Shown piece by piece: positions 16,372-28,090 of a DNA stretch of 64,000 nucleotides. How positions within the stretch are numbered: the stretch's first letter is position 1; every line of letters starts with the position of its first letter. Made by a program: the position numbers and the translations under genes. The notes under the pieces are model-generated. The model was not told the origin of the DNA, did not search any database, and saw nothing but the letters and a program-made list of their open reading frames with translations. Source of the DNA: Bacteroidia bacterium (GTDB taxonomy: Bacteria > Bacteroidota > Bacteroidia > UBA8524); assembly GCA_965222995.1 (NCBI GenBank), contig OZ244977.1, positions 384,152 through 448,151 of the forward strand, in the 5' to 3' direction.

Positions 16372-18687
16372 CTACTTTATCAAAGAAACTCTTTGCACCG
16401 TATTAAACTCACTGCTATTACTAAGTGTAACAAAGTATACACCAGCCTTTTGTGTTTCTAGATATAAGGTATAGCTGGCGACATCATTTTGTAACGTACC
16501 TTGATAAATGTCTCTACCCAATATATCGGTAACATGTATGGTTAGCACACCACTATATTGTTGTAAATCACGGGTGATGGTAATTGCGCCTGTTGTAGGG
16601 TTGGGAAAGAGTTGAATGTTGAGTTTTTTTGTAATTGTTGGTATGCTGTTACTTTTCTTTCTGGTATTTAAGAAATTAATTCCACCCCTAAAATTCCCCA
16701 TCATAAGAATGGGTCTTGCATTTGTGCTATCGCTAAGCAAAGGTGCAGCAGGGATAATTCTTGAGCCAAAGTCAATCCCGTCAAATTTTTCGGTAATATC
16801 ATTTAACACAAACTCTTTAGTTTCTATAAAAGAGTCGTTAATGTTCTTAATATCTGAATATAACCAAAGTTTTCCGCTTTCAGCACCTACCACTAAATCC
16901 CAGTTGCCGTTATTATCCAAATCAGCAAAATAAGGGGCAGCAAACCCCGTAGTAGAGTATTGCAAGGTTGAATCTTCTATTTCGGCCGTAGTGTCATTTA
17001 ATTTATATTGCCAAAACGGTTCTGCTACAAGCACTTTACCTAATGAATCTATGGTTGGAGTGCTTGAAAACTGTGGAGAAGTGGCAGTACCGGTATTTTT
17101 ATAAAAGGCTAAAAATCCGTTTCCTTTTCCTATTACTAAATCTATAAGGTTATCCTTATCCAAGTCTACCAGCTGTGGTACGGCAGCAGTACCCACATCT
17201 ATGTCCATATATTTTTTTACAGGGGCAGCAAACGATAAACTATTAGTAATTGAATTGTTTTGATAATAATATAGTTGTCCTTCTGCATTGCCAATTACCA
17301 TATCCTGCTTCCCATCATCATTCAAATCTCCAAAAGTGGGCTTTAAATCACGGATACTGTCTTTTATTAAATCTAAATAGTCAAACACATTATCATGAGT
17401 GAATTCAGCGTTGGTTTTGCCTCCGGTATTTTTAAAAAGTGAAATTCTATCAGCTTTGTTAAATGTTTCAGTAAACTCACCCCTGTGTGCTACCAGCATA
17501 TCCAAATCACCATCACCGTCAGCATCTACAAATCTTGGTGTTACGCCTGAGCCGAAATCTAAAGTCAGTTCTTGTAAAAAATTGGTTCTTTCAATTACAA
17601 AGTCAGGCTTAATATTGGTGCCATTATTCTTATAAAGCCAAATTTGCTTTTTGTTTTTCACACCAGCATCGGCATTGGGGGCAACCACTAAATCTTTGGC
17701 GTTTGAACCAATATTAGCATCAATATAAAATGCTGCGGGGAATGTTGATATATCTATAGGGTTTAGCTTGGGAAAAACAGTATCGTACTGCACAATTGAA
17801 TCAATTGGATGCGAAAAATCGCTTTTGCCGTTATACAACAAGGTTAGTTCATCGTAGGTAGCATCCCCTAATAGTAAATCTTTGTCATTATCATCATCTA
17901 CATCAAGCAATAACATGGTAGAGCCTGCATGCACTGCCGAAGTATAGTACCTGCCACTAAAACAAGGGACACCCAAAGTTATTGAACGGTCTTGGTTGCT
18001 TTCACTAAAGCCTCCCCAACAACCGTCATAAAACCTAAATGTTAAACTGTCAAGCGGGTAACCCTTTTCTTTTGCTTCATTACCATATAAAGTAATGAGT
18101 GTGGTTGACGAGTTGAACGATAAGATATCTAAATCACCATCGCCGTCAACATCATCAATAGCTGAAATATCATCAGCAATCCAAAAAATGGGTGCTTCAG
18201 GTAATGCAGGATCATTTTGGTCTGCTGTTAATTCTTTTTCAACCAGTTGAAACTTTGGGATGCCTCCCGTAGATATATTTTTGTATACTGCTACTGCTTG
18301 CGGATGGAAATAGGCATCAGCAGCAGTAAAAATATCTTCTTTTCCATCGCCGTTATAATCTGCCAATAATGCCCATGAATGCATATTGGGGAAAGCAAAT
18401 TCATACCCGGGAGCATAAATCCAATTTGAACCTTGTCCATTGGGATGTAGAAAAGTTAGTACCTTGTTGCTAGACCTATCAAAAACAAAAAGGTCTTTCT
18501 TTCCATCTGCATCTAAGTCTATATTAGAAAACTGCGGCGAAATGAAACCACCTACAAAGGGATATGGTATAGTATTATTTGAAGCACTATTAAATACAAG
18601 GGAATTATTTAAAAAATACCTAGGGCTTTGTGCTGATGCAATTAATACAATACTTAAGAAGCTAAGTAGTAAAAATAATTTTTTCAT
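16372..18687 (-). CDS. FG-GAP/VCBS-repeat beta-propeller protein with T9SS CTD (paralog A)
   Basis: Repeated D.DGDGD.DL Ca-binding motifs and LFPNP CTD. Confidence 0.88.
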   Translation of the reverse strand: MKKLFLLLSFLSIVLIASAQSPRYFLNNSLVFNSASNNTIPYPFVGGFISPQFSNIDLDADGKKDLFVFDRSSNKVLTFLHPNGQGSNWIYAPGYEFAFPNMHSWALLADYNGDGKEDIFTAADAYFHPQAVAVYKNISTGGIPKFQLVEKELTADQNDPALPEAPIFWIADDISAIDDVDGDGDLDILSFNSSTTLITLYGNEAKEKGYPLDSLTFRFYDGCWGGFSESNQDRSITLGVPCFSGRYYTSAVHAGSTMLLLDVDDDNDKDLLLGDATYDELTLLYNGKSDFSHPIDSIVQYDTVFPKLNPIDISTFPAAFYIDANIGSNAKDLVVAPNADAGVKNKKQIWLYKNNGTNIKPDFVIERTNFLQELTLDFGSGVTPRFVDADGDGDLDMLVAHRGEFTETFNKADRISLFKNTGGKTNAEFTHDNVFDYLDLIKDSIRDLKPTFGDLNDDGKQDMVIGNAEGQLYYYQNNSITNSLSFAAPVKKYMDIDVGTAAVPQLVDLDKDNLIDLVIGKGNGFLAFYKNTGTATSPQFSSTPTIDSLGKVLVAEPFWQYKLNDTTAEIEDSTLQYSTTGFAAPYFADLDNNGNWDLVVGAESGKLWLYSDIKNINDSFIETKEFVLNDITEKFDGIDFGSRIIPAAPLLSDSTNARPILMMGNFRGGINFLNTRKKSNSIPTITKKLNIQLFPNPTTGAITITRDLQQYSGVLTIHVTDILGRDIYQGTLQNDVASYTLYLETQKAGVYFVTLSNSSEFNTVQRVSLIK

Positions 18688-18718: not shown

Positions 18719-21052
18719 TTACTTAATTAAAGAAACTCTCTCCACGGTTCTAAACTGTCTACCATCGCTAAGGGTAATATAATACACGCCTGCCATTTGG
18801 TTTTGTAGTGAAAGGGTGTAATTGCTAATCCCTTCTTGTAATGTTCCGTAATAAACTTCACGCCCAAGAATATCATTAATGTGAATTACCAACTCACCAT
18901 CGTATTGCTGTAAATCTCGGGTTATATTTACCATGCCCTTAGTAGGGTTTGGGAATATATTGACGGCAAGTTCTTCAACAATTTCAGGTACGCTTATAGA
19001 TAATTTGGTTGAATCTCTTTCAGCATTTAAAAAGTTTAAACCACCTCTAAAGTTACCAATCAAAATTACGGGTATTGCATCTGCACTATCACTTAGTAAT
19101 GCTGCCTCGGGCAGCACTCTAAATCCAAAGTCTATTCCTCCAAACTCTTTGCTTAAGTTATCGTACACAAATGTATCTATCTCTACAAAAGAGCCATTCA
19201 GGTTGTTATCAATATTCTCAAACAACCATATTTTTCCGTTTTGGCTACCCAAAATCAATTCACGCTCACCATCTTTGTCAAGGTCGCCAATATAAGGCGC
19301 CGCAAAGCCACTAAAATCATAAGTTTTAACAGAGTCTATAATCTCACCTGTAACATTGTGTAATACATAGTACCAGTAAAAATCATTCACATATACATTC
19401 CCCAGTGTATCAATTGTTGGTAGAGAATCGAATTGAGGTGCAGTTTTAGTGCCCTTATTCTTATAAAAGTTTATAAAACCACCACCAGTGCCTATAACCA
19501 AATCAAGTAGGTCATCATCATCCAAATCTATAATTTGGGGTGCGGCACTAAACCCCACATCAATACGCATATAGTCTTTAACCGGCGATGCAAAAGATAA
19601 ATTACCTGTAGTATTATTTTGATAATAGTGTAGTCGTCCGTCAGCATCGCCAATTAGCATATCCTGTTTTCCGTCTCCGTTTAAGTCTCCAAAAGCAGGT
19701 TTCATATCGCGGATACTGTCTTTTATTAAGCCCAGATAATCAAATGTATTATCCTGCGTAAACTCAGCATTGGTTTTATCACCTGTATTTTTAAAAAGCG
19801 TTATTCTATCAGCTTTGTTAAAAGACTCTCTAAACTCACCCCTGTGTGCTACCAAAAGGTCTAAATCTCCATCGGCATCTACATCTAAAAATCTTGGTGT
19901 GGCTCCAGAGCCAAAGTCAATTGTCCATTCTTGTAAAAAGTTAGTTTTTTGTAGTGCGAAAATCGGTTTAGTGTTAGAGCCATTATTTCTATACAACCAT
20001 ATTTGGTTGGTATTTTTTCCGCCGGCACCTATGTTAGGTGCCACTATTAAATCTTTTGAAGCAAAACCGGTATTAGCATCTACATAATAAGCAGCGGGGA
20101 AATTATAAATTTTAGCTTTTGTAGTGCCTGTAACGGGGAAAACTGTGTCGTATGCAATCATAGAGTCATACGGCCAGTTCATATCACTTTTACCGTTGTA
20201 TACAATAGATAACTCATCAAACGATGCGTCGCCCAATATTAAATCTTTGTCGTTATCGTCATCAACATCAATCAGCAACATGGTAGAGCCTGCATGTGCC
20301 CCTGCTTTGTAATATCGCCCACCAAAACAAGGTACACCCAAAGTAATTGAACGATCTGTAAAACTTTCTCTAAAACCGCCCCAACATTCATCGTAGGTTC
20401 TAAATGTTAAGCTGTCTAAAGAATAGCCTTTCTCAACAGCCTCATTGCCATACAGGGTAATTGATGCCGCCGAAGCATCAAAAGATAAAATATCTAAATC
20501 TCCGTCTCCATCAACATCATCAATGGCTGAAATATCATCTCTAATCCAATATACAGGGGCTTCAGGAAGTCCTTGAATATTTTGTTCGGCAGTAAGTTCA
20601 GCCGCTACCAATTGAAACTTTACATTATTACCAACTGAAACATTTTTGTAAACTGCTATTGCTTGCGGATATAAATTAGCATCAGCAGCAGTGAAAATAT
20701 CTTCTTTTCCATCACCATTATAATCTGCCAATAACGCCCATGAATGCATTGAAGGGAATCCCATTTCATAGTCAGGGGCATAAACCCAATTGGTCATTGG
20801 ACCTTGTGCATTTAAAAAAGTTAATACTTTGTTTGTAGCTCTATCAAAAACAAAAAGGTCTTTTTTGCCATCACCATTTAAATCAATATTTGAAAATTGA
20901 GGAGATATAAAGCCCCCCATAAACGGATAAGGAATGGTAGAGTTATTAGCTCTTTTAAATGTAAGAGAATTATCTAAAAAGTACTTAGGGCTTTGTGCAA
21001 ATGAGAAAATATAGCAAGCCACTAAGGCAAACAAAAGTGTAAGCTTTTTCAT
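18719..21052 (-). CDS. FG-GAP/VCBS-repeat beta-propeller protein with T9SS CTD (paralog B)
   Basis: Same architecture, collinear with the neighbour from end to end. Confidence 0.88.
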   Translation of the reverse strand: MKKLTLLFALVACYIFSFAQSPKYFLDNSLTFKRANNSTIPYPFMGGFISPQFSNIDLNGDGKKDLFVFDRATNKVLTFLNAQGPMTNWVYAPDYEMGFPSMHSWALLADYNGDGKEDIFTAADANLYPQAIAVYKNVSVGNNVKFQLVAAELTAEQNIQGLPEAPVYWIRDDISAIDDVDGDGDLDILSFDASAASITLYGNEAVEKGYSLDSLTFRTYDECWGGFRESFTDRSITLGVPCFGGRYYKAGAHAGSTMLLIDVDDDNDKDLILGDASFDELSIVYNGKSDMNWPYDSMIAYDTVFPVTGTTKAKIYNFPAAYYVDANTGFASKDLIVAPNIGAGGKNTNQIWLYRNNGSNTKPIFALQKTNFLQEWTIDFGSGATPRFLDVDADGDLDLLVAHRGEFRESFNKADRITLFKNTGDKTNAEFTQDNTFDYLGLIKDSIRDMKPAFGDLNGDGKQDMLIGDADGRLHYYQNNTTGNLSFASPVKDYMRIDVGFSAAPQIIDLDDDDLLDLVIGTGGGFINFYKNKGTKTAPQFDSLPTIDTLGNVYVNDFYWYYVLHNVTGEIIDSVKTYDFSGFAAPYIGDLDKDGERELILGSQNGKIWLFENIDNNLNGSFVEIDTFVYDNLSKEFGGIDFGFRVLPEAALLSDSADAIPVILIGNFRGGLNFLNAERDSTKLSISVPEIVEELAVNIFPNPTKGMVNITRDLQQYDGELVIHINDILGREVYYGTLQEGISNYTLSLQNQMAGVYYITLSDGRQFRTVERVSLIK

Positions 21053-21176: not shown

Positions 21177-22496
21177 ATGCAACAATTATCATCCATAGAA
21201 CAATTGTATAGGTTATACAGCCAACAGTATAGGGTATGTACGGACACCAGAAATATATTGCCAAACAGCATTTTTTTTGCTTTAAAAGGAGCAAATTTTA
21301 ACGGGAATGCTTTTGCCGTGGAGGCACTAAATAAGGGTGCAGCGTATGCAATTGTTGATGAAGGTATAAATACTACTAATGATAGGGTTTTAAGAGTGCA
21401 AAACGTACTGCAAACTTTGCAGCAATTGGCAAATTATCACCGCAAGCAATTAAGTATTCCGTTTATAGCTATTGGGGGAAGTAATGGAAAAACCACCACC
21501 AAAGAGCTACTTAATTCTGTATTGAGTCAAAAATTTACAACCTATGCTACTAAGGGGAATTTAAACAATCATATAGGTGTACCGCTTACCTTGTTAGCTA
21601 TTAAACCCGATGTGGAAATGGCAATTATAGAAATGGGAACTAACCAACCCGGTGATATGGAAGAGCTTTGCAATATTGCCGAACCTGATTACGGTATAAC
21701 TACAAATATTGGTAAAGAGCATTTAGAAGGCTTTGGCAGCCTTGAAGGGGTTGCCAAAGAAGAAAGTGTACTCTATTTACATTTAATGAAAAATGGTGGG
21801 CTTGCTTTTGTAAATGCTAATGACGAGTGGCTTACCCGCATGGCATCTCGCTTAGAAAAGGTTTACAAATACGGCTATAATACCACTGATAAAAAAATAG
21901 TTAATGCTGATTATATAGGAGAGTTAATCACAGCCAATCCTTTTATAGAGTGTAAACTGCCAAATATTAATGAGAAAGTAAAAGCACAATTAAGCGGTGA
22001 GTTTAATTTCCAGAATATAATAGCAGCGGCTGCTATCGGTAATTATTTTGAAGTTGGAGGTGAGCAAATAAAAACAGGGATTGAAAGTTATGCCCCTACG
22101 AATAATCGTTCACAAGTAGTTGTAAAGGGTAGCAATACTTTATATATGGATTGTTACAATGCCAACCCCAGTAGTATGGAAGTAGCATTAAAAAACTTTG
22201 CCTCTTTTGAGCACAAAAATAAAATTGTGGTTTTGGGCGATATGTTTGAGTTGGGAGAATTTGCCGAAGCTGAGCACAAAGCCATAATGGAATTATGCAG
22301 AGAACTGGGTTTTGAGAATGTATACACTGTGGGAGAATTGTTTACCCCCTATGCTGATATAGTAAAAGCAAAAACCTTCAAAACCTCAACAGAGCTGGCA
22401 GAAAACTTTAAACAACACCCACTTAAAGATACTTATATACTATTCAAGGCTTCACGGGGCATAGCTTTAGAAAAAGCTGTTGAGGGAATTTCTTAA
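21177..22496 (+). CDS. murF: UDP-MurNAc-tripeptide--D-Ala-D-Ala ligase
   Basis: DTR, GSNGKTTTKE, GNLNNHIGVPLTL, DCYNANP, LGDMFELG, KASRG. Confidence 0.96.
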   Translation: MQQLSSIEQLYRLYSQQYRVCTDTRNILPNSIFFALKGANFNGNAFAVEALNKGAAYAIVDEGINTTNDRVLRVQNVLQTLQQLANYHRKQLSIPFIAIGGSNGKTTTKELLNSVLSQKFTTYATKGNLNNHIGVPLTLLAIKPDVEMAIIEMGTNQPGDMEELCNIAEPDYGITTNIGKEHLEGFGSLEGVAKEESVLYLHLMKNGGLAFVNANDEWLTRMASRLEKVYKYGYNTTDKKIVNADYIGELITANPFIECKLPNINEKVKAQLSGEFNFQNIIAAAAIGNYFEVGGEQIKTGIESYAPTNNRSQVVVKGSNTLYMDCYNANPSSMEVALKNFASFEHKNKIVVLGDMFELGEFAEAEHKAIMELCRELGFENVYTVGELFTPYADIVKAKTFKTSTELAENFKQHPLKDTYILFKASRGIALEKAVEGIS

Positions 22497-22503
22497 CCTG
22501 CCT

Positions 22504-22526
22504 AACATTTCACTTTTTGGCTACGT
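22504..22526 (+). promoter_or_regulatory. ECF-type promoter AAC-N17-CGT upstream of the desaturase-KSIII operon
   Basis: tAAC-atttcactttttggcta-CGTt. Confidence 0.5.
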
Positions 22527-22547
22527 TTTACTGTTAATGCAACTGAA

Positions 22548-22593
22548 TTGCAGTTTTTGCAAAACACAATACTCACGTATGCAAAAACTGCAA
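22548..22593. repeat. Perfect 14-bp inverted repeat (operator or hairpin)
   Basis: TTGCAGTTTTTGCA (22548-22561), 18-nt spacer, TGCAAAAACTGCAA (22580-22593). Confidence 0.8.
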
Positions 22594-22633
22594 ATTTAGC
22601 GTTGTAGCAAAGGATTATTTTTGCTTAATCTAG

Positions 22634-23353
22634 GTGGATTTAAAATTTAAAATTATTTACCAGTTGCCTTATTGGCAAATTACCTTATTAACCATTGGGT
22701 ATTTTTTACTGCTATATTTTGGTTTGGGATATGTTTTTAACAGCTGTTGTAAGTGGCTGTATAAAAAGAAGTGGATTAACAAAATTGAAGAGAAAGACCC
22801 TAACCCAACCCAAATTAAGAGAGAGATAAAAAACTCGATAATATCCATACTTGTATTTGGATTTTCAGGGTTGCCTATAGTTTATTTATTAAGGAAATCA
22901 TATATAACTGTTATTCCTGATACTTTTTTAAATGTAGTAGTGGGTTTGGTTATTCTAACGTTGTGGAATGAAGTGCACTTTTTCATTATCCATCGATTGT
23001 TACACACACCTTACCTGATGAGAAAAGTACATTTTAAGCATCATGCCTCAACAACACCTACAATTTATAGTATTTATAGCTTCCATTGGTTTGAAGCACT
23101 ACTATTAAGCACTGTTCCCTTAAGTGTTTTGTGGATGGGGAGTTTTCCAATAATGGCTTTCGCTTTGTTCCCCATAGTAAGTATACTTTTAAATTTTGCA
23201 GGACACTGTAATTACCGGTTCGGAAATGGCAAAGGCAATGCTTTAAGTCTTTTTGCTACACGCCATAATGAGCACCATACCAAAAGAGCTAAAAACTATG
23301 GTTTTGCTCTGTTTCTGCTAGATAAACTGAATAAAAAAATTAACAAACTATGA
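22634..23353 (+). CDS. Sterol desaturase / fatty-acid hydroxylase superfamily membrane enzyme
   Basis: His boxes HRLLH, HFKHH, GHCN, HNEHH and NYG, with TM helices. TATTTTTG -7 box at 22616-22623. Confidence 0.9.
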   Translation: MDLKFKIIYQLPYWQITLLTIGYFLLLYFGLGYVFNSCCKWLYKKKWINKIEEKDPNPTQIKREIKNSIISILVFGFSGLPIVYLLRKSYITVIPDTFLNVVVGLVILTLWNEVHFFIIHRLLHTPYLMRKVHFKHHASTTPTIYSIYSFHWFEALLLSTVPLSVLWMGSFPIMAFALFPIVSILLNFAGHCNYRFGNGKGNALSLFATRHNEHHTKRAKNYGFALFLLDKLNKKINKL

Positions 23354-25197
23354 ATAATGTATATATAAATGCTATCGGAGCCTTTTTGCCCGGGGACCCA
23401 ATTGATAATGAAGCTATTGAGCAACATTTGGGTAGGGTACATAATAAACCCAGTTCTTTAAAAAACAGAATCTTAAAGCAAAACGGCATTAAAACCAGAT
23501 ATTATGCTTTAGATAATAAACAACAAAGCAAGTACAGCAATGCTTCCCTTGCTGCCAACGCAGCCAAAAATGCCATTGAAAAAAGCAAGCTTTCACTAAA
23601 AGATATTGAACTTTTGGCTACAGGCACTACACAAGGAGATTTACCTGTGCCCGGTTTTGCCAGTATGGTGCATGCACAATTAAGCATTCCCCAATGTGAA
23701 GTGGCAAGTTTTCAAAGTGTATGTTCAAGCGGTATAATGGCAATAAAAGATGCCTACTCGCAAATCAGGATGGGGGAAAAGCAAAATGCTTTGTGTATTG
23801 GTAGTGAGTTTGCCAGCAGAATGTTTAAAAGCAGTCGTTTTGAAGGGCAAAAAGCAGAGGCTTTGCCTTTTGATACTGAATTTTTGCGCTGGATGCTTAG
23901 CGATGGTGCAGGGGCTTTAGTATTGGAGAATAAAAAGCGGGATGGTAGTTTATCACTAAAAATTGATTGGGTAGATTTACGTTCGCACGCCAATGATTTT
24001 CCTTTGTGCATGTATACGGGGAAGAATGATAACAAAAACGAAAATGAACAAACTTGGCTGGATTACCCTGATTATGAAACAGCAGCAAAGGCAGGAGCAA
24101 TCAACCTGAAACAAGATGTGCGATTACTTAATGATGTGATAAAAACAGGTGTAGCACATTTTTTTGAATTGATTGACAAAGGAAAAATTGAAGTAGACAA
24201 TATAGATTGGTTGTGTTGCCATTACTCATCAGAGTATTTTAAAAAACCTATTCAAGAATTATTAATTAAAGGAGGAGCTAATATTCCAGAAGAAAAATGG
24301 TTTAGCAACCTTACTATAAAAGGTAATACAGGGGCAGCATCTATATTTATTATGCTTGAAGAATTATTCTATTCAGGCAAATTAAAAGAAGGCGATACTA
24401 TTTTATGTATGGTTCCCGAGAGTGGCAGGTTTATTACCTCATTTATGCAACTTACCGCTGAAGGAGCTACCCAAAAAAACAATAAATATGCTATACGGCA
24501 ACCCGAAGCCCCCGAACTGAATATTGAAAAACGACCCCAAGCCGAATGGTTGGTGAGACAGCTTACCCAAATATGGATTGCCTTTGAGACCGACCTGTTG
24601 AAAGTACCTATTATAAAGAAGATACATGACGGGCAACTTTCTATAGAAGACTATAAGCTGTTGCTGATTGATTTAAGGCAACAGGTTATTGATGGTTCAC
24701 AATGGATAGCTCGAGCAGCTTCAAATATTGATATTAAGTTGTTTGATTTGCGTTCGGCATTTATAAAACATACAGCTACAGAACACAAAGACTACCAAAT
24801 GCTAGAGAAAAACTTTGTAGCTCTGGGCGAGAATTTGGCAACAATACAAAGTGGTGAAAAAAATATAGGTAGTGCAGCACTTTCATCATTTATGTTTCAG
24901 CAAGCCAGTAAGCCTAACCCTGTTGATTTACTGGGTTCAATGTTTATTATAGAAGGTATAGGGAAACGGTTGGCTGCCTTTTGGGGTAATATGATTAAAG
25001 AACAATTGAAATTAACTAAGGAGCAAGTTTCGTTTTTTACCTACCATGGTGAAGCCGATGAACACCATTTTCATAATTTAGAGCAAGCACTTAACCATCC
25101 TAAATTAACCATGGATATTGCTAAACAGATAGCAAAGACGGCAAAAACAACAGCGAAACTTTGGAAGATGCAGTTAGAAGAATTGGGTAATTATTAA
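23350..25197 (+). CDS. DarB/StlD-type beta-ketoacyl synthase III fused to a C-terminal heme-oxygenase-like diiron (iron-containing redox enzyme) domain
   Basis: KSIII triad Cys (SVCSSG), His (CHYSS), Asn (GNTGAAS), and DarB-like FLRWMLSDGAGA and VPESGRF. The C-terminal ~230 aa carry EHKD, IIEG and HGEADEHH ligand motifs. Confidence 0.85.
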   Translation: MNNVYINAIGAFLPGDPIDNEAIEQHLGRVHNKPSSLKNRILKQNGIKTRYYALDNKQQSKYSNASLAANAAKNAIEKSKLSLKDIELLATGTTQGDLPVPGFASMVHAQLSIPQCEVASFQSVCSSGIMAIKDAYSQIRMGEKQNALCIGSEFASRMFKSSRFEGQKAEALPFDTEFLRWMLSDGAGALVLENKKRDGSLSLKIDWVDLRSHANDFPLCMYTGKNDNKNENEQTWLDYPDYETAAKAGAINLKQDVRLLNDVIKTGVAHFFELIDKGKIEVDNIDWLCCHYSSEYFKKPIQELLIKGGANIPEEKWFSNLTIKGNTGAASIFIMLEELFYSGKLKEGDTILCMVPESGRFITSFMQLTAEGATQKNNKYAIRQPEAPELNIEKRPQAEWLVRQLTQIWIAFETDLLKVPIIKKIHDGQLSIEDYKLLLIDLRQQVIDGSQWIARAASNIDIKLFDLRSAFIKHTATEHKDYQMLEKNFVALGENLATIQSGEKNIGSAALSSFMFQQASKPNPVDLLGSMFIIEGIGKRLAAFWGNMIKEQLKLTKEQVSFFTYHGEADEHHFHNLEQALNHPKLTMDIAKQIAKTAKTTAKLWKMQLEELGNY

Positions 25198-25217
25198 AAG
25201 CTAAAAAGTGTAATGCA

Positions 25218-26132
25218 ATGACAAAAGATTTTTTAAATATAGAAAAGCACGATAACCGAGACCCTAACCCTTGGTTGGCTATGTATTTGGATAATAGTAT
25301 CCCTTTTAATAAAGATACTAAAGAGGCTTTAATGCGAGATAACAACTCACGCTCAACAAAATACCTGTTGCCCTTTATAAGCCTATGGTCTAAAATAACT
25401 ATGTTCTTTATTCATGTTTTAAAGTTCTTTTTCCCAAAGCTTATTGATTCATCAAAAACATTGCATAGGATTTTGGCTTGGGGGCTAAAGCGGTTTGTTA
25501 GCCCTGATGCTAATTTGCTTATTTTCAGGCATTTTCATGTAGGTAGTGAAATACTGCAGTTTATAGCAAAAAATATTGATGGTGTTGATATACCCACAAG
25601 CCCTATTAAGCCTAAAAATTTTCAGGATGTAAAAGATGATATTTTTTTAAAGCACGATTTAAACCTATACAACTTTGTAATTAACCTAAACAAACAATTG
25701 GCTGATAACAAAGTGGAACTGAAAGGGAAAGAAAACCTTAATTTAAGTATGATTACCGAGGGAAGGTTTGACCATATAGAATTCCCAAAAAAATGGACAA
25801 ACGTTCTAGACTTACGTTCAGCTATTGAATTATTTACTCCTTTTTATCAATTATTCCTTACTGCTAACGATTTTGTGCGTGCAACTAATTCATTACAACT
25901 GGATGAAACAATAGGTATTTATGCCTCTAAAATACTAAATAGTCCCGCACATTTAGGGCTTATAAATAACCGACATCCTATGGTCCCACTAAATACTTAT
26001 AGTGCCGCTTTTAGGTTGGTGTTGCATGGGCTGGCGGCTGAAACACTGCATGCTGTTTTAGTGAGTATTAAACAAAACAAAAACCGCGATGGTATTATAG
26101 TTAATGCAACGCTTAATAAACAAGATAATTAG
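25218..26132 (+). CDS. Conserved uncharacterised protein (DUF6999-like) of KSIII/redox-enzyme clusters
   Basis: DPNPWLAMYLD, RHFHVGSE, HDLNLYNF, NSLQLDET motifs. The family name is from memory, not searched. Confidence 0.6.
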   Translation: MTKDFLNIEKHDNRDPNPWLAMYLDNSIPFNKDTKEALMRDNNSRSTKYLLPFISLWSKITMFFIHVLKFFFPKLIDSSKTLHRILAWGLKRFVSPDANLLIFRHFHVGSEILQFIAKNIDGVDIPTSPIKPKNFQDVKDDIFLKHDLNLYNFVINLNKQLADNKVELKGKENLNLSMITEGRFDHIEFPKKWTNVLDLRSAIELFTPFYQLFLTANDFVRATNSLQLDETIGIYASKILNSPAHLGLINNRHPMVPLNTYSAAFRLVLHGLAAETLHAVLVSIKQNKNRDGIIVNATLNKQDN

Positions 26133-28090
26133 GCACCTAGGTTTCTCCAGCCTCGCAAAACAATATTTATATCATTTGCTACACTATAGTCTTTAGCATA
26201 AAAGAAATTTAGTTTTTCAGGAGTTATAAAATCGGCGTTGTTAGCAGGAATGTTATTTAAGGGCGAGAGTAATCCCTCTTTAATTTTCGGGAGCACATCA
26301 ATATTATCTGCCTTAGCATAACCTACTAAAGATTTTTTCCCAATAACGGTATTTAATAACCCAATAAAAGCTTCGGCAGGTTCCTTCAATAGCCACCCTA
26401 AAATTGGAAATAATACTATAAGTATTATGGAAGTTATAATATCAAAAACACGTTTGTTTGCAGCCAATGCAGGGTCGGCAATATTAAGCTTTAAATCTAC
26501 CGTATAAAGTTCCCCATTGGTATTTTTACTATTGCTGCCAATAATATAAAAGCTGTTGCGCGGCACTATTTTAAAATTAATCTGTTCATTGTCCATACGT
26601 GTCATCCAACCCATAATTTTATCGGCAGGTATATCACGTGCGCAAAAAATAACTTCGGTTATATCAAACACCTCACATATTTCTTTCAGGTGGTTCATAT
26701 TACCCAAATACTTGTCAGCATCCTTAAAAGCCCCGTTTACAGATACAAAACCTTTAAAAGTATGCGGTGCATCGGTTTGTTTCAGTAATTCATAAACGCG
26801 GTAGGCTTCTTCTTCTTCTCCAGCAATTACCGTATTGTAAGCAAACTGTTGTCCATAATTAATGCTGCGGTATTTGGCAAAGTATACCAGTAATCGCCAG
26901 CCTACTAAAAATACAACTCCCCAAAGAGCCCCTAATATTATCAAGGCGCGTGAAAAGCGTAATGAATCAGGCAAGAAAGCATATACTACACTTATCATCA
27001 CAGTGCCTAAAAACAAACCTTGCAGTATATTTTTAAGCTTGTGTTTTTTGTCATACCCCCCGCTAAGGTAAATACCCAGTAGCCAAAGTAAAACGTATAG
27101 TGTACCGTTAAACCACATATAAATAGCCGGATATTCTCCGCCCAAAACGTACCTGTGGTTTTGTTCCCAATATGTTTTCACGTAGTGGTGCCCTGCAAAA
27201 AGTACTATAGCATCAGCAAGGGCATGTTTGGTTTTGTCCCAAAACCGCCACGCCAATGCTAAAGCTGCTCTAAACCAAATAGCAATATTTATAAATAAGC
27301 TAAACCATTTGGCATTACTGCCTTTGTAGTGTTTTTGGGCAAATATTACCATGGCCCTATAAAACACAAATACATAGTTTACACTGGTTTTCTTAGTGCT
27401 CTCGCCTTTGTAGTGTATTATAGTAGTATCGGCAAAGTAGTAGTTTCTATATCCAGCCTGGGTTATGCGATAACTTAAGTCTATATCTTCACCATACATA
27501 AAAAAGGTTTCATCAAGCAAACCAATTTTATCTAAAGTTTCCTTGCGGATTAGCATAAAAGCACCAGCAAGTATATCTACTTCATTAGTCTCATGCTCGC
27601 TTAGGTACTTTAAGTGATATCGCCCGAATACTTTTGATTTTGGAAAGAGTTTAGCTAGTCCACACATCTTATAAAAAGCAACCGAAGGTGAAGGCAGCCC
27701 ACGTTTAGATTCAGGTAAAAATTTACCTTTACCATCAATCATTCTAACCCCCAAGCCACCTGCATCAGGTGTGGCATCCATAAACGCTACAACTTTTTCA
27801 AAAGTAGTTTCCTCAACTACAGTGTCGGGGTTAAGAAGTAAAACATACTTCCCTGTACTTTCTTTTATGGCTTGGTTATTGGCAGCAGAAAAGCCTACAT
27901 TTTTTTTATTGGCAATAAGTTTCACCTCAGGAAACTTTTCACGTACCATTTCTACACTTCCATCTACCGAATCATTATCAACCACAAAAACCTCTGTAGG
28001 TACTTTTTGGGCAGCCTTTTGCACGCTTAAAAGAGCTTGCTCTAAAAAAGCTTTTACATTGTAGTTAACTATAATTACGGATAACTTCAC
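26129..28090 (-). CDS. GT2 glycosyltransferase fused to membrane, CoA-binding-like and degenerate sugar-transferase domains
   Basis: SVIIVNYN, VVDNDSVDGS, LLLNPD, FFMYGEDIDL, then TM region and KRVFDI. Confidence 0.85.
   Translation of the reverse strand: MKLSVIIVNYNVKAFLEQALLSVQKAAQKVPTEVFVVDNDSVDGSVEMVREKFPEVKLIANKKNVGFSAANNQAIKESTGKYVLLLNPDTVVEETTFEKVVAFMDATPDAGGLGVRMIDGKGKFLPESKRGLPSPSVAFYKMCGLAKLFPKSKVFGRYHLKYLSEHETNEVDILAGAFMLIRKETLDKIGLLDETFFMYGEDIDLSYRITQAGYRNYYFADTTIIHYKGESTKKTSVNYVFVFYRAMVIFAQKHYKGSNAKWFSLFINIAIWFRAALALAWRFWDKTKHALADAIVLFAGHHYVKTYWEQNHRYVLGGEYPAIYMWFNGTLYVLLWLLGIYLSGGYDKKHKLKNILQGLFLGTVMISVVYAFLPDSLRFSRALIILGALWGVVFLVGWRLLVYFAKYRSINYGQQFAYNTVIAGEEEEAYRVYELLKQTDAPHTFKGFVSVNGAFKDADKYLGNMNHLKEICEVFDITEVIFCARDIPADKIMGWMTRMDNEQINFKIVPRNSFYIIGSNSKNTNGELYTVDLKLNIADPALAANKRVFDIITSIILIVLFPILGWLLKEPAEAFIGLLNTVIGKKSLVGYAKADNIDVLPKIKEGLLSPLNNIPANNADFITPEKLNFFYAKDYSVANDINIVLRGWRNLGA

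Follow-up and report, generated by a model that had tools for sequence, protein, structure and literature searches.

A conserved gene cassette linking a StlD/DarB-type ketosynthase, a heme-oxygenase-like domain and a DUF6999 protein in Bacteroidota and Gammaproteobacteria

Results

A three-gene locus was analyzed in a 64,000-nt stretch of contig OZ244977.1 of a Bacteroidia bacterium (GCA_965222995.1; positions 384,152 to 448,151 of the forward strand). This whole stretch is called the window, and coordinates without another label are positions within it. The locus encodes a membrane protein of the FA_hydroxylase family (gene 1), a fusion of a StlD/DarB-type ketosynthase III (KS) with a heme-oxygenase-like (HDO) domain (gene 2), and a DUF6999 protein (gene 3). 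Sequence and gene-order comparisons indicate that it is a self-contained, widely scattered cassette, in which KS, HDO and DUF6999 constitute the invariable core, usually joined by a His-rich membrane protein as a fourth component. The cassette may represent a variant of DarB-type resorcinol chemistry with HDO and DUF6999 in place of DarA, a reading that we put forward tentatively and for which no published description was found. The features of the cassette are as follows (aa, amino acids).

22634-23353, + strand: gene 1, FA_hydroxylase-family membrane protein (239 aa, GTG start)
23350-25197, + strand: gene 2, KS-HDO fusion (615 aa)
23350-24459, + strand: KS domain of gene 2 (aa 1-370), StlD/DarB-type ketosynthase III
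24460-24534, + strand: KS/HDO linker in gene 2 (aa 371-395), between the end of the StlD match and the first helix of the structural model
24535-25197, + strand: HDO-type domain of gene 2 (aa 396-615), heme-oxygenase-like and helical
25218-26132, + strand: gene 3, DUF6999 protein (304 aa)

Conservation of the cassette

The open reading frame (ORF) map showed a 4-base overlap between genes 1 and 2 and a 20-base gap between genes 2 and 3. Homologues of the fusion and of the DUF6999 protein both number in the thousands. The 120 top matches for either protein were 70-97% identical and came from hosts including Catalinimonas, Marivirga, Pedobacter, Flavivirga, Cyclobacterium, Aureibaculum and Saprospiraceae; their annotations went no further than "beta-ketoacyl-ACP synthase III", "DUF6999 family protein" or "hypothetical". 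A pattern scan of 185,579 species, with one genome per species, detected a DUF6999 relative in 451 genomes. An earlier, sequence-only reading of this DNA had regarded the operon as an orphan; these 451 genomes, together with the second subfamily described below, contradict that view.

Synteny was counted in 80 loci taken from the 451 genomes, using tblastn with the window proteins (E<=1e-10). KS and HDO were encoded directly upstream of DUF6999 in 77/80 loci, and the remaining ones consisted of two contig ends (L054 and L071) and one rearranged locus (L072), where DUF6999 was preceded by ABC transporter and FA_desaturase genes. The murF and GT2-type genes that flank the window copy were present at none of the 80 loci. 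All-against-all clustering of the 2,204 ORFs of these loci recovered DUF6999 at every one of the 80 loci, the full-length fusion at 74 and the hydroxylase at 61, along with several antisense shadow ORFs within the cassette genes. An FA_desaturase (PF00487) of approximately 266 aa was inserted between the fusion and DUF6999 in 10/80 loci. No other family occurred in more than 8 of the 80 loci, and neither DarA nor an acyl carrier protein (ACP) nor a ligase was among the conserved neighbors; therefore, ACP, ligase, DarA, regulator and transporter genes are not parts of the cassette. This is in line with the sequence-only reading, which had listed no DarA, ACP or ligase at the locus. Based on this comparison, the three ORFs are genuine genes rather than chance reading frames, because all of them are kept in the same order across many other genomes.

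When 401 genomes sampled evenly over the phylum were searched, DUF6999 was found in four, and the HDO domain was found in the same four genomes, adjacent to DUF6999 in each. The co-occurrence of the genes in other genomes was thus confirmed both in the synteny set and in the phylum sample. DUF6999 was also present in 2 of 41 close relatives of the window genome. The window's own genome contained one DarB-like gene and one PF14518 gene, and a presumed DarA (defined below) was not found in it. Identities of the fusion between genomes were 72, 71, 57 and 56%, compared with 49, 50, 47 and 40% for MurF in the same genome pairs. The pattern fits strong purifying selection combined with horizontal spread of the cassette, because the fusion is better conserved than MurF, the KS tree departs from taxonomy and the occupancy is 1%.

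Several individual loci deserve separate mention. Flagellimonas algicola AsT0115 carried two pairs of KS-HDO and DUF6999 genes on separate contigs (L017 and L068), both without the hydroxylase. Three loci bore labels that do not fit a Bacteroidota-type cassette, namely L013 (Glaciecola sp.) and L041 (Bifidobacterium sp.), both from metagenome-assembled genomes (MAGs), and L071 (Pseudomonadales MAG, 1.8-kb contig); their labels or binning look doubtful. A phylum sample drawn around the L013 genome yielded hits identical in position to those from the sample of the window phylum.

Ketosynthase domain

The Pfam search placed ketosynthase III domains and Haem_oxygenas_2 in the single 615-aa protein. 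Residues 2-370 matched StlD (PDB 5gk0) with an E-value of 5.8e-86 and approximately 50% identity, and Cys125, His291 and Asn326 were aligned with the StlD triad; the StlD variant structure 5gk2 differs precisely at the His aligned with His291. All three residues were invariant in 18 full-length fusions with identities down to 33%. The earlier assignment of this domain to the StlD/DarB type with an intact Cys/His/Asn triad is therefore upheld. The KS part scored 425.5 bits with NF005293 (StlD/DarB subfamily; cut-off 450) and 379.1 bits with NF053539 (DarB; cut-off 550), and FabH-type NCBIfam models reached at most 116 bits.

The DarB model was also used to survey a 61-genome sample of the class. 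Canonical DarB proteins scored between 534 and 668 bits and were encoded by ORFs of 378-425 aa at 10 sites spread over 9 genomes; the fused type scored 368-403 bits, with ORFs of 600-635 aa, in 4 of the 61 genomes including the window's own. A maximum-likelihood tree was constructed from 23 KS sequences, comprising 14 fused forms, the split Pseudoalteromonas KS, a Nostoc copy, six canonical DarB proteins and one FabH outgroup, whose branch was very long, so that the root serves for drawing only. All KS sequences linked to HDO and DUF6999 grouped in a single clade (support 84/91), and canonical DarB was placed separately (80/41); these support values are moderate. Within the fused clade, the tree did not follow taxonomy.

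One cassette-bearing genome also contained a DarB-like frame of canonical length that shares 42% identity with the KS domain (G392:C7:61481-62620, - strand). It is broken by one TGA and one TAA and is possibly a pseudogene.

Heme-oxygenase-like domain

The C-terminal domain matched Haem_oxygenas_2 (PF14518; gathering score 28.9) at aa 491-605, scoring 31.5 bits. A phmmer search with aa 381-615 against 1.84 billion representative proteins retrieved 303 clusters (E<=1e-3), and the relatives occurred as both fused (about 615-640 aa) and standalone (about 230-260 aa) forms. The AlphaFold2 model of the domain, built with an alignment of 25 domain relatives, was all-helical (pLDDT 95.8, pTM 0.92), and its first helix begins at domain residue 16, corresponding to aa 396. 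Foldseek comparison of the model with the PDB gave 49 matches (E<=1e-3), and those listed were all heme-oxygenase-like, TenA, CADD or UndA folds. The closest was 3dde (TM score 0.80-0.81, root-mean-square deviation 2.1-2.3), followed by Chlamydia CADD (8vag, 8va9 and 1rcw; TM score 0.78) and UndA (4wwj; TM score 0.68); TenA proteins and heme oxygenases were matched as well. The HDO profile reached a single relative in the PDB at the sequence level, 3dde (E 2.6e-15), and this profile search detected no sequence-level relation to CADD.

The motifs noted earlier in this helical domain were located as E478-H479-K480-D481, I534-E535-G536 and H566-x3-D570-x2-H573. E535 and the HxxxDxxH motif were aligned with a Glu and the HxxxDxxH of 3dde. 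H474, D481, E535 and H566 were invariant in the 18 fusions; E478, D570 and H573 were not. Y435 was one of only four invariant columns across 25 diverse domain relatives. The candidate metal ligands are H474/E478/D481, E535, H566, D570 and H573. This predicted set is probable rather than settled, because D481 of helix 1 is mismatched with a His and E478, D570 and H573 are variable.

The model and its structural matches to 3dde and CADD corroborate the proposed heme-oxygenase-like fold with HxxxDxxH. As the fold was confirmed and the genes co-occur, none of the computable outcomes that the sequence-only reading had listed against itself, such as a different fold of this domain or the absence of the gene set from other genomes, was found.

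DUF6999 protein

Gene 3 matched DUF6999 (PF22523) over its full length (positions 1-275 of 275; E 6.6e-119, 396.4 bits). The AlphaFold2 model, built from 25 shallow sequences, was all-helical and of moderate confidence (pLDDT 71), and hydropathy analysis showed a single marginal hydrophobic segment (aa 50-68). A sequence search of the PDB gave no matches at E<=1, the model had no Foldseek match in the PDB at E<=1e-3, and a protein atlas comparison gave no usable match. The best VIA-align Z score was 4.0, far under the chance level for helical bundles; thus, no known fold could be assigned.

Forty sequences from both subfamilies shared the invariant polar residues D25, D41, K69, N99, R104, H105 and N119, as well as H146, D147, N224, D229, N251, R266, H270 and E275. 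Since three His and at least three carboxylate residues are invariant on a helical scaffold, a dimetal or mononuclear metal site is conceivable, and DUF6999 may well be a metalloenzyme with a new fold.

The sequence-only reading had supposed that the third protein might be a cyclase or a replacement for DarA. As a probe for DarA, a protein of approximately 300 aa encoded just upstream of a canonical darB was used, which showed a weak flavodoxin match. The hhalign probability between the DUF6999 alignment and this presumed DarA was 3.6%, indicating no detectable relation, and that between DUF6999 and the HDO domain profile was 0.15%, again with no detectable relation. Insofar as the presumed identity of the probe holds, the hhalign result speaks against DUF6999 as a DarA-type aromatase. 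With an all-helical model that has no PDB match, the supposed role of cyclase or DarA replacement is still a guess.

Membrane hydroxylase

Gene 1 is assigned by sequence to the FA_hydroxylase/sterol desaturase superfamily on three grounds: its match to PF04116 (E 3.9e-19), its His boxes (H115-x4-H120-x3-H124, H133-x2-H136-H137 and H211-x2-H214-H215), and a predicted polytopic topology with 4-5 hydrophobic segments. H115, H120, H124, H133, H136, H137, H151, H191, H211, H214 and H215 were invariant in 12 cassette homologues. An FA_hydroxylase gene was located upstream of the fusion in 62/80 loci. The other 18 comprised 6 loci cut by a contig end and 12 with unrelated genes upstream. Because it is absent from 12 sufficiently long loci, the hydroxylase cannot be essential to the core chemistry. 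The "desaturase" recognized earlier is thus a member of the operon in the window, and its part in the cassette is accessory only, as it is replaced by an unrelated His-rich membrane protein in the gammaproteobacterial form.

Split form of the cassette

A tblastn search of plasmids identified a 26%-identical DUF6999 protein on pTHAF3_a, an 801-kb replicon of Pseudoalteromonas sp. THAF3. The cassette genes on this replicon were co-directional and translationally coupled, in the order of a 185-aa hypothetical protein, a 366-aa KS, a 226-aa HDO protein and a 280-aa DUF6999 protein. The KS ("beta-ketoacyl-ACP synthase III") was 50% identical to the window KS domain, the HDO protein ("iron-containing redox enzyme family protein") was 41% identical to the window HDO domain, and the DUF6999 protein matched PF22523 with 322 bits. 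This gammaproteobacterial subfamily of DUF6999 had 797 relatives (E<=1e-10), the best 120 of which were 64-99% identical and came from hosts including Vibrio rumoiensis, Rheinheimera, Halomonas, Simiduia, Endozoicomonas, Cellvibrionaceae and Methylococcales.

Split-form synteny was counted in 80 metagenome loci. HDO was encoded upstream of DUF6999 in 76/80, KS upstream of HDO in 53/80, and the 185-aa protein in 43/80. All misses were contigs ending within or just before the preceding gene; therefore, the order membrane protein-KS-HDO-DUF6999 was kept in 43/43 loci that reach far enough. KS and HDO were separate ORFs in 53/53 loci, and thus the fusion in the window constitutes a Rosetta-stone link between them. 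FA_hydroxylase was found in none of the 80 loci. A 634-aa gene downstream of the Pseudoalteromonas cassette was considered as a further component and rejected, being present in only 1/80 loci.

The 185-aa gene, which precedes KS for example at L097:7621-8178 and L103:5637-6185, encodes a polytopic membrane protein with invariant His/Glu/Asp motifs (DWxCH, HExxAHxDV and WExHxH). It had no Pfam match, and hhalign against FA_hydroxylase gave a probability of 0.2%, so no homology is claimed. Judged by these motifs, it may be a small membrane metalloenzyme.

In a panel of named genomes, Caulobacter vibrioides matched PF22523, PF14518 and the DarB model at E<=1e-80; thus, the trio is probably present in the model organism Caulobacter as well. 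Separately, a degraded copy of the cassette was observed next to a cytochrome P450 gene on the conjugative plasmid pNFSY08 of Nostoc flagelliforme (L098:7831-10543). Its KS is intact and 52% identical, its HDO is encoded in a different frame, and its DUF6999 is truncated to the N-terminal half.

Surroundings of the locus

The neighboring features in the window are as follows.

21177-22496, + strand: murF, upstream neighbor (Mur ligase domains by Pfam)
22543-22599, + strand: spacer hairpin between murF and gene 1
26129-28090, - strand: GT2-type gene, convergent neighbor (653 aa)

The ORF map agrees with the earlier description of three co-directional, tightly coupled genes between murF and a convergent GT2 gene. 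The start at 22504 noted then has to be corrected, since it falls inside the 137-base spacer that separates murF from gene 1, and the earliest possible start codon for gene 1 is at 22634. The spacer contains an inverted repeat (22543-22599) with perfect 13-base arms, TGCAGTTTTTGCA and TGCAAAAACTGCA. The predicted fold of 22497-22633 had an energy of -32.2 kcal/mol (z -2.65), with 2 of 200 shuffles equally stable. A simple terminator scan of the region did not pick up the hairpin, and promoter and terminator scans of the region gave no signal above the shuffled level. The hairpin could be a murF terminator or an operator, both being candidate roles only. The G+C content of the region was even (0.33-0.38).

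The stop codon of the DUF6999 gene overlaps that of the convergent gene by 4 bases. The protein encoded at 26129-28090 has a GT2 glycosyltransferase domain (aa 4-234) joined to a polyprenyl glycosylphosphotransferase-like region and a CoA_binding_3 domain; the polyprenyl glycosylphosphotransferase match covers positions 3-276 of 445 only, leaving the catalytic C-terminal part unmatched. Farther upstream, two tandem paralogous ORFs of 771 aa (16372-18687, - strand) and 777 aa (18719-21052, - strand) encode highly similar sequences in which DxDGDG-type motifs recur and the C-termini match. Visual inspection suggests secreted proteins of the FG-GAP/VCBS-repeat kind that carry a type IX secretion tail.

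Discussion

Gene order in the Bacteroidota and gammaproteobacterial loci shows that the predicted core trio has been inherited together across two deeply diverged subfamilies, whether fused or split, and always without DarA. DarB-type enzymes condense a 3-oxoacyl with a 2-enoyl thioester to a cyclohexanedione carboxylic acid, which DarA/StlC aromatizes with loss of CO2 (PMC13748660). The HDO enzymes UndA and BesC use O2 to cleave C-C bonds and to decarboxylate their substrates, leaving a double bond (PMC13108848).

We suggest, as a possibility with somewhat less than an even chance of being right, that the cassette encodes a DarA-independent route, in which the KS makes a ring acid, the HDO domain performs an oxidative decarboxylation and aromatization, and DUF6999 and the membrane enzyme carry out further oxidation. 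The chemistry put forward in the sequence-only reading, a condensation followed by two oxidations, is plausible in outline. The KS would take two acyl thioesters, a 3-oxoacyl and a 2-enoyl chain, from fatty-acid synthase; no carrier or ligase gene would be needed, because the substrates would come from fatty-acid synthesis. Like DarB/StlD, it would join them by Michael addition and Claisen closure to form a 2,5-dialkyl-cyclohexanedione carboxylic acid. With O2 and a dimetal center, the HDO domain would then take over the job of the DarA/StlC aromatase, most likely through a UndA/BesC-like oxidative decarboxylation that adds the missing ring double bond and gives a dialkylresorcinol. DUF6999 and the membrane hydroxylase would subsequently oxidize the ring or the alkyl chains, assisted in some genomes by the extra FA_desaturase. 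The end product would be a membrane-resident oxidized lipid or signal of the resorcinol or quinol type.

A number of observations weigh against this route. The KS lies below both NCBIfam cut-offs, and a different condensation might be conceived for it. The ligands on helix 1 of the HDO domain are equivocal, with D481 standing at a His of 3dde; D570 and H573 vary in the most diverged fusions, and the motif is incomplete in some distant standalone relatives. The DUF6999 model is of moderate confidence (pLDDT 71), and the putative metal role is read from conserved residues only. The DarA probe was identified solely by its position and size beside a canonical darB, the hydroxylase gene is missing in 12 loci with enough upstream sequence, and each of the proposed chemical steps is inferred.

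One alternative concerns the condensation itself. PpyS and OleA join two acyl chains head-to-head to a beta-keto acid or pyrone, and a similar reaction of the cassette KS, followed by UndA-like action of the HDO domain on a linear carboxylate, would give long-chain ketones, enones or olefins that the membrane enzyme and DUF6999 would hydroxylate or desaturate. The sub-threshold scores of the KS with the StlD/DarB and DarB models and its own clade, the presence of UndA among the fold matches, and the FA_desaturase in 10/80 cassettes together with the common FA_hydroxylase, which suit aliphatic substrates, all speak for such chemistry. However, StlD (E 5.8e-86) and the StlD/DarB model (425.5 bits, compared with at most 116 for FabH-type models) are by far the best matches of the KS, and the UndA fold match (TM score 0.68) is weaker than that of 3dde or CADD; we regard the head-to-head condensation as unlikely. 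The order of the two domains may also be questioned. The HDO domain could act before the KS, making or modifying its substrate, for example by amino-acid oxidation, or releasing an aromatic unit by a CADD-like self-sacrifice, in which case the product would be no simple dialkylresorcinol. CADD is indeed the closest functionally characterized fold match (8vag, TM score 0.78), Tyr Y435 is among the only four columns invariant in 25 domain relatives, and most characterized HDO enzymes use amino acids as substrates. Yet no gene for handling amino acids, and no ligase or carrier gene, is conserved in the cassette. Fusing a single-turnover enzyme 1:1 to a catalytic KS would also limit output, and at the profile level no relation to CADD was detected and only 3dde passes. 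We give this order of events a small probability.

It is less probable still that gene 2 is an ordinary DarB of the canonical dialkylresorcinol/flexirubin pathway, with DarA and polyene genes at other genomic sites and with an extra domain and neighbors that are incidental. In favor of this, genome papers on Fulvivirga kasyanovii and Marivirga lumbricoides, which belong to cassette-carrying genera, list an antiSMASH "resorcinol" cluster without a product, which may or may not be the cassette. Against the ordinary-DarB explanation, canonical DarB proteins are approximately 380 aa long and score 534-668 bits, whereas members of the cassette clade are fused and score 368-403 bits. Moreover, a search of the window's own genome did not recover the presumed DarA, and the synteny contradicts an incidental association, as the linkage to HDO and DUF6999 holds in 77/80 and 43/43 loci from two phyla.

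The cassette KS is of the same type as those of DarA/DarB and StlC/StlD, with approximately 50% identity to StlD and the same Cys-His-Asn triad, and many dar loci are likewise without a carrier protein or ligase of their own. In contrast to those systems, the cassette lacks the DarA/StlC aromatase, its KS forms a separate clade under the family cut-offs, and this KS is always linked, by fusion or adjacency, to HDO and DUF6999. The HDO domain shares the fold, PF14518, and HxxxDxxH with a neighboring-helix Glu with UndA, BesC, CADD and SznF, but differs from them in the helix-1 ligands and belongs to a small family (the 303 representative clusters among 1.84 billion). Its closest solved relative, 3dde (Sden_3740 of Shewanella denitrificans), also has a heme-oxygenase-like fold; it is a standalone structural-genomics protein without an assigned function, whereas the cassette domain is fused to a KS. 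A precedent for combining resorcinol-forming with non-heme dimetal enzymes is provided by the bartoloside and cylindrocyclophane pathways, where DarB-type/resorcinol chemistry is paired with the dimetal-carboxylate halogenases CylC/BrtJ acting on alkyl chains. However, a DarA homologue is retained in these pathways, and the dimetal enzymes involved come from a different family.

The literature searched, outside which lay supplements and subscription journals, contained no description of a KS-HDO fusion or operon or of a DUF6999 function. None of the known HDO enzymes is described as fused to or operonic with a ketosynthase in that literature. Likewise, the main text of an HDO review and of two HDO mining papers does not mention ketosynthase, ketoacyl or fusion, and their supplementary tables might. 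Genome-mining tools probably file cassette loci as plain "resorcinol" clusters, thereby masking the difference.

A bolder extension of the DarA-independent route is that DUF6999 is the founding member of a new fold family of dimetal (3 His/3 carboxylate) oxygenases, that the cassette makes a novel class of oxidized dialkyl-carbocyclic lipids, and that the HDO reaction is new to its superfamily; we consider this combination rather doubtful. If it were true, lipids such as alkylated hydroxyquinols or quinones would be made by many aquatic and soil Bacteroidota, by Gammaproteobacteria and probably by Caulobacter, and the HDO domain would catalyze an aromatizing decarboxylation of a polyketide-like ring, new to the HDO superfamily.

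Because the cassette is small (3-4 genes), strongly conserved and present in hundreds of species, both cultured and uncultured, and probably in Caulobacter, its function is directly testable by expression or knock-out. It would give DUF6999 a first function, and likewise the Pfam-less His-rich membrane protein of the gammaproteobacterial form. The HDO class is growing fast and has so far been associated mostly with amino-acid chemistry; the conserved, obligatory pairing of an HDO with a resorcinol-type KS suggests novel HDO reactions on rings of lipid origin, as well as a way of making aromatic lipids that does not depend on DarA.

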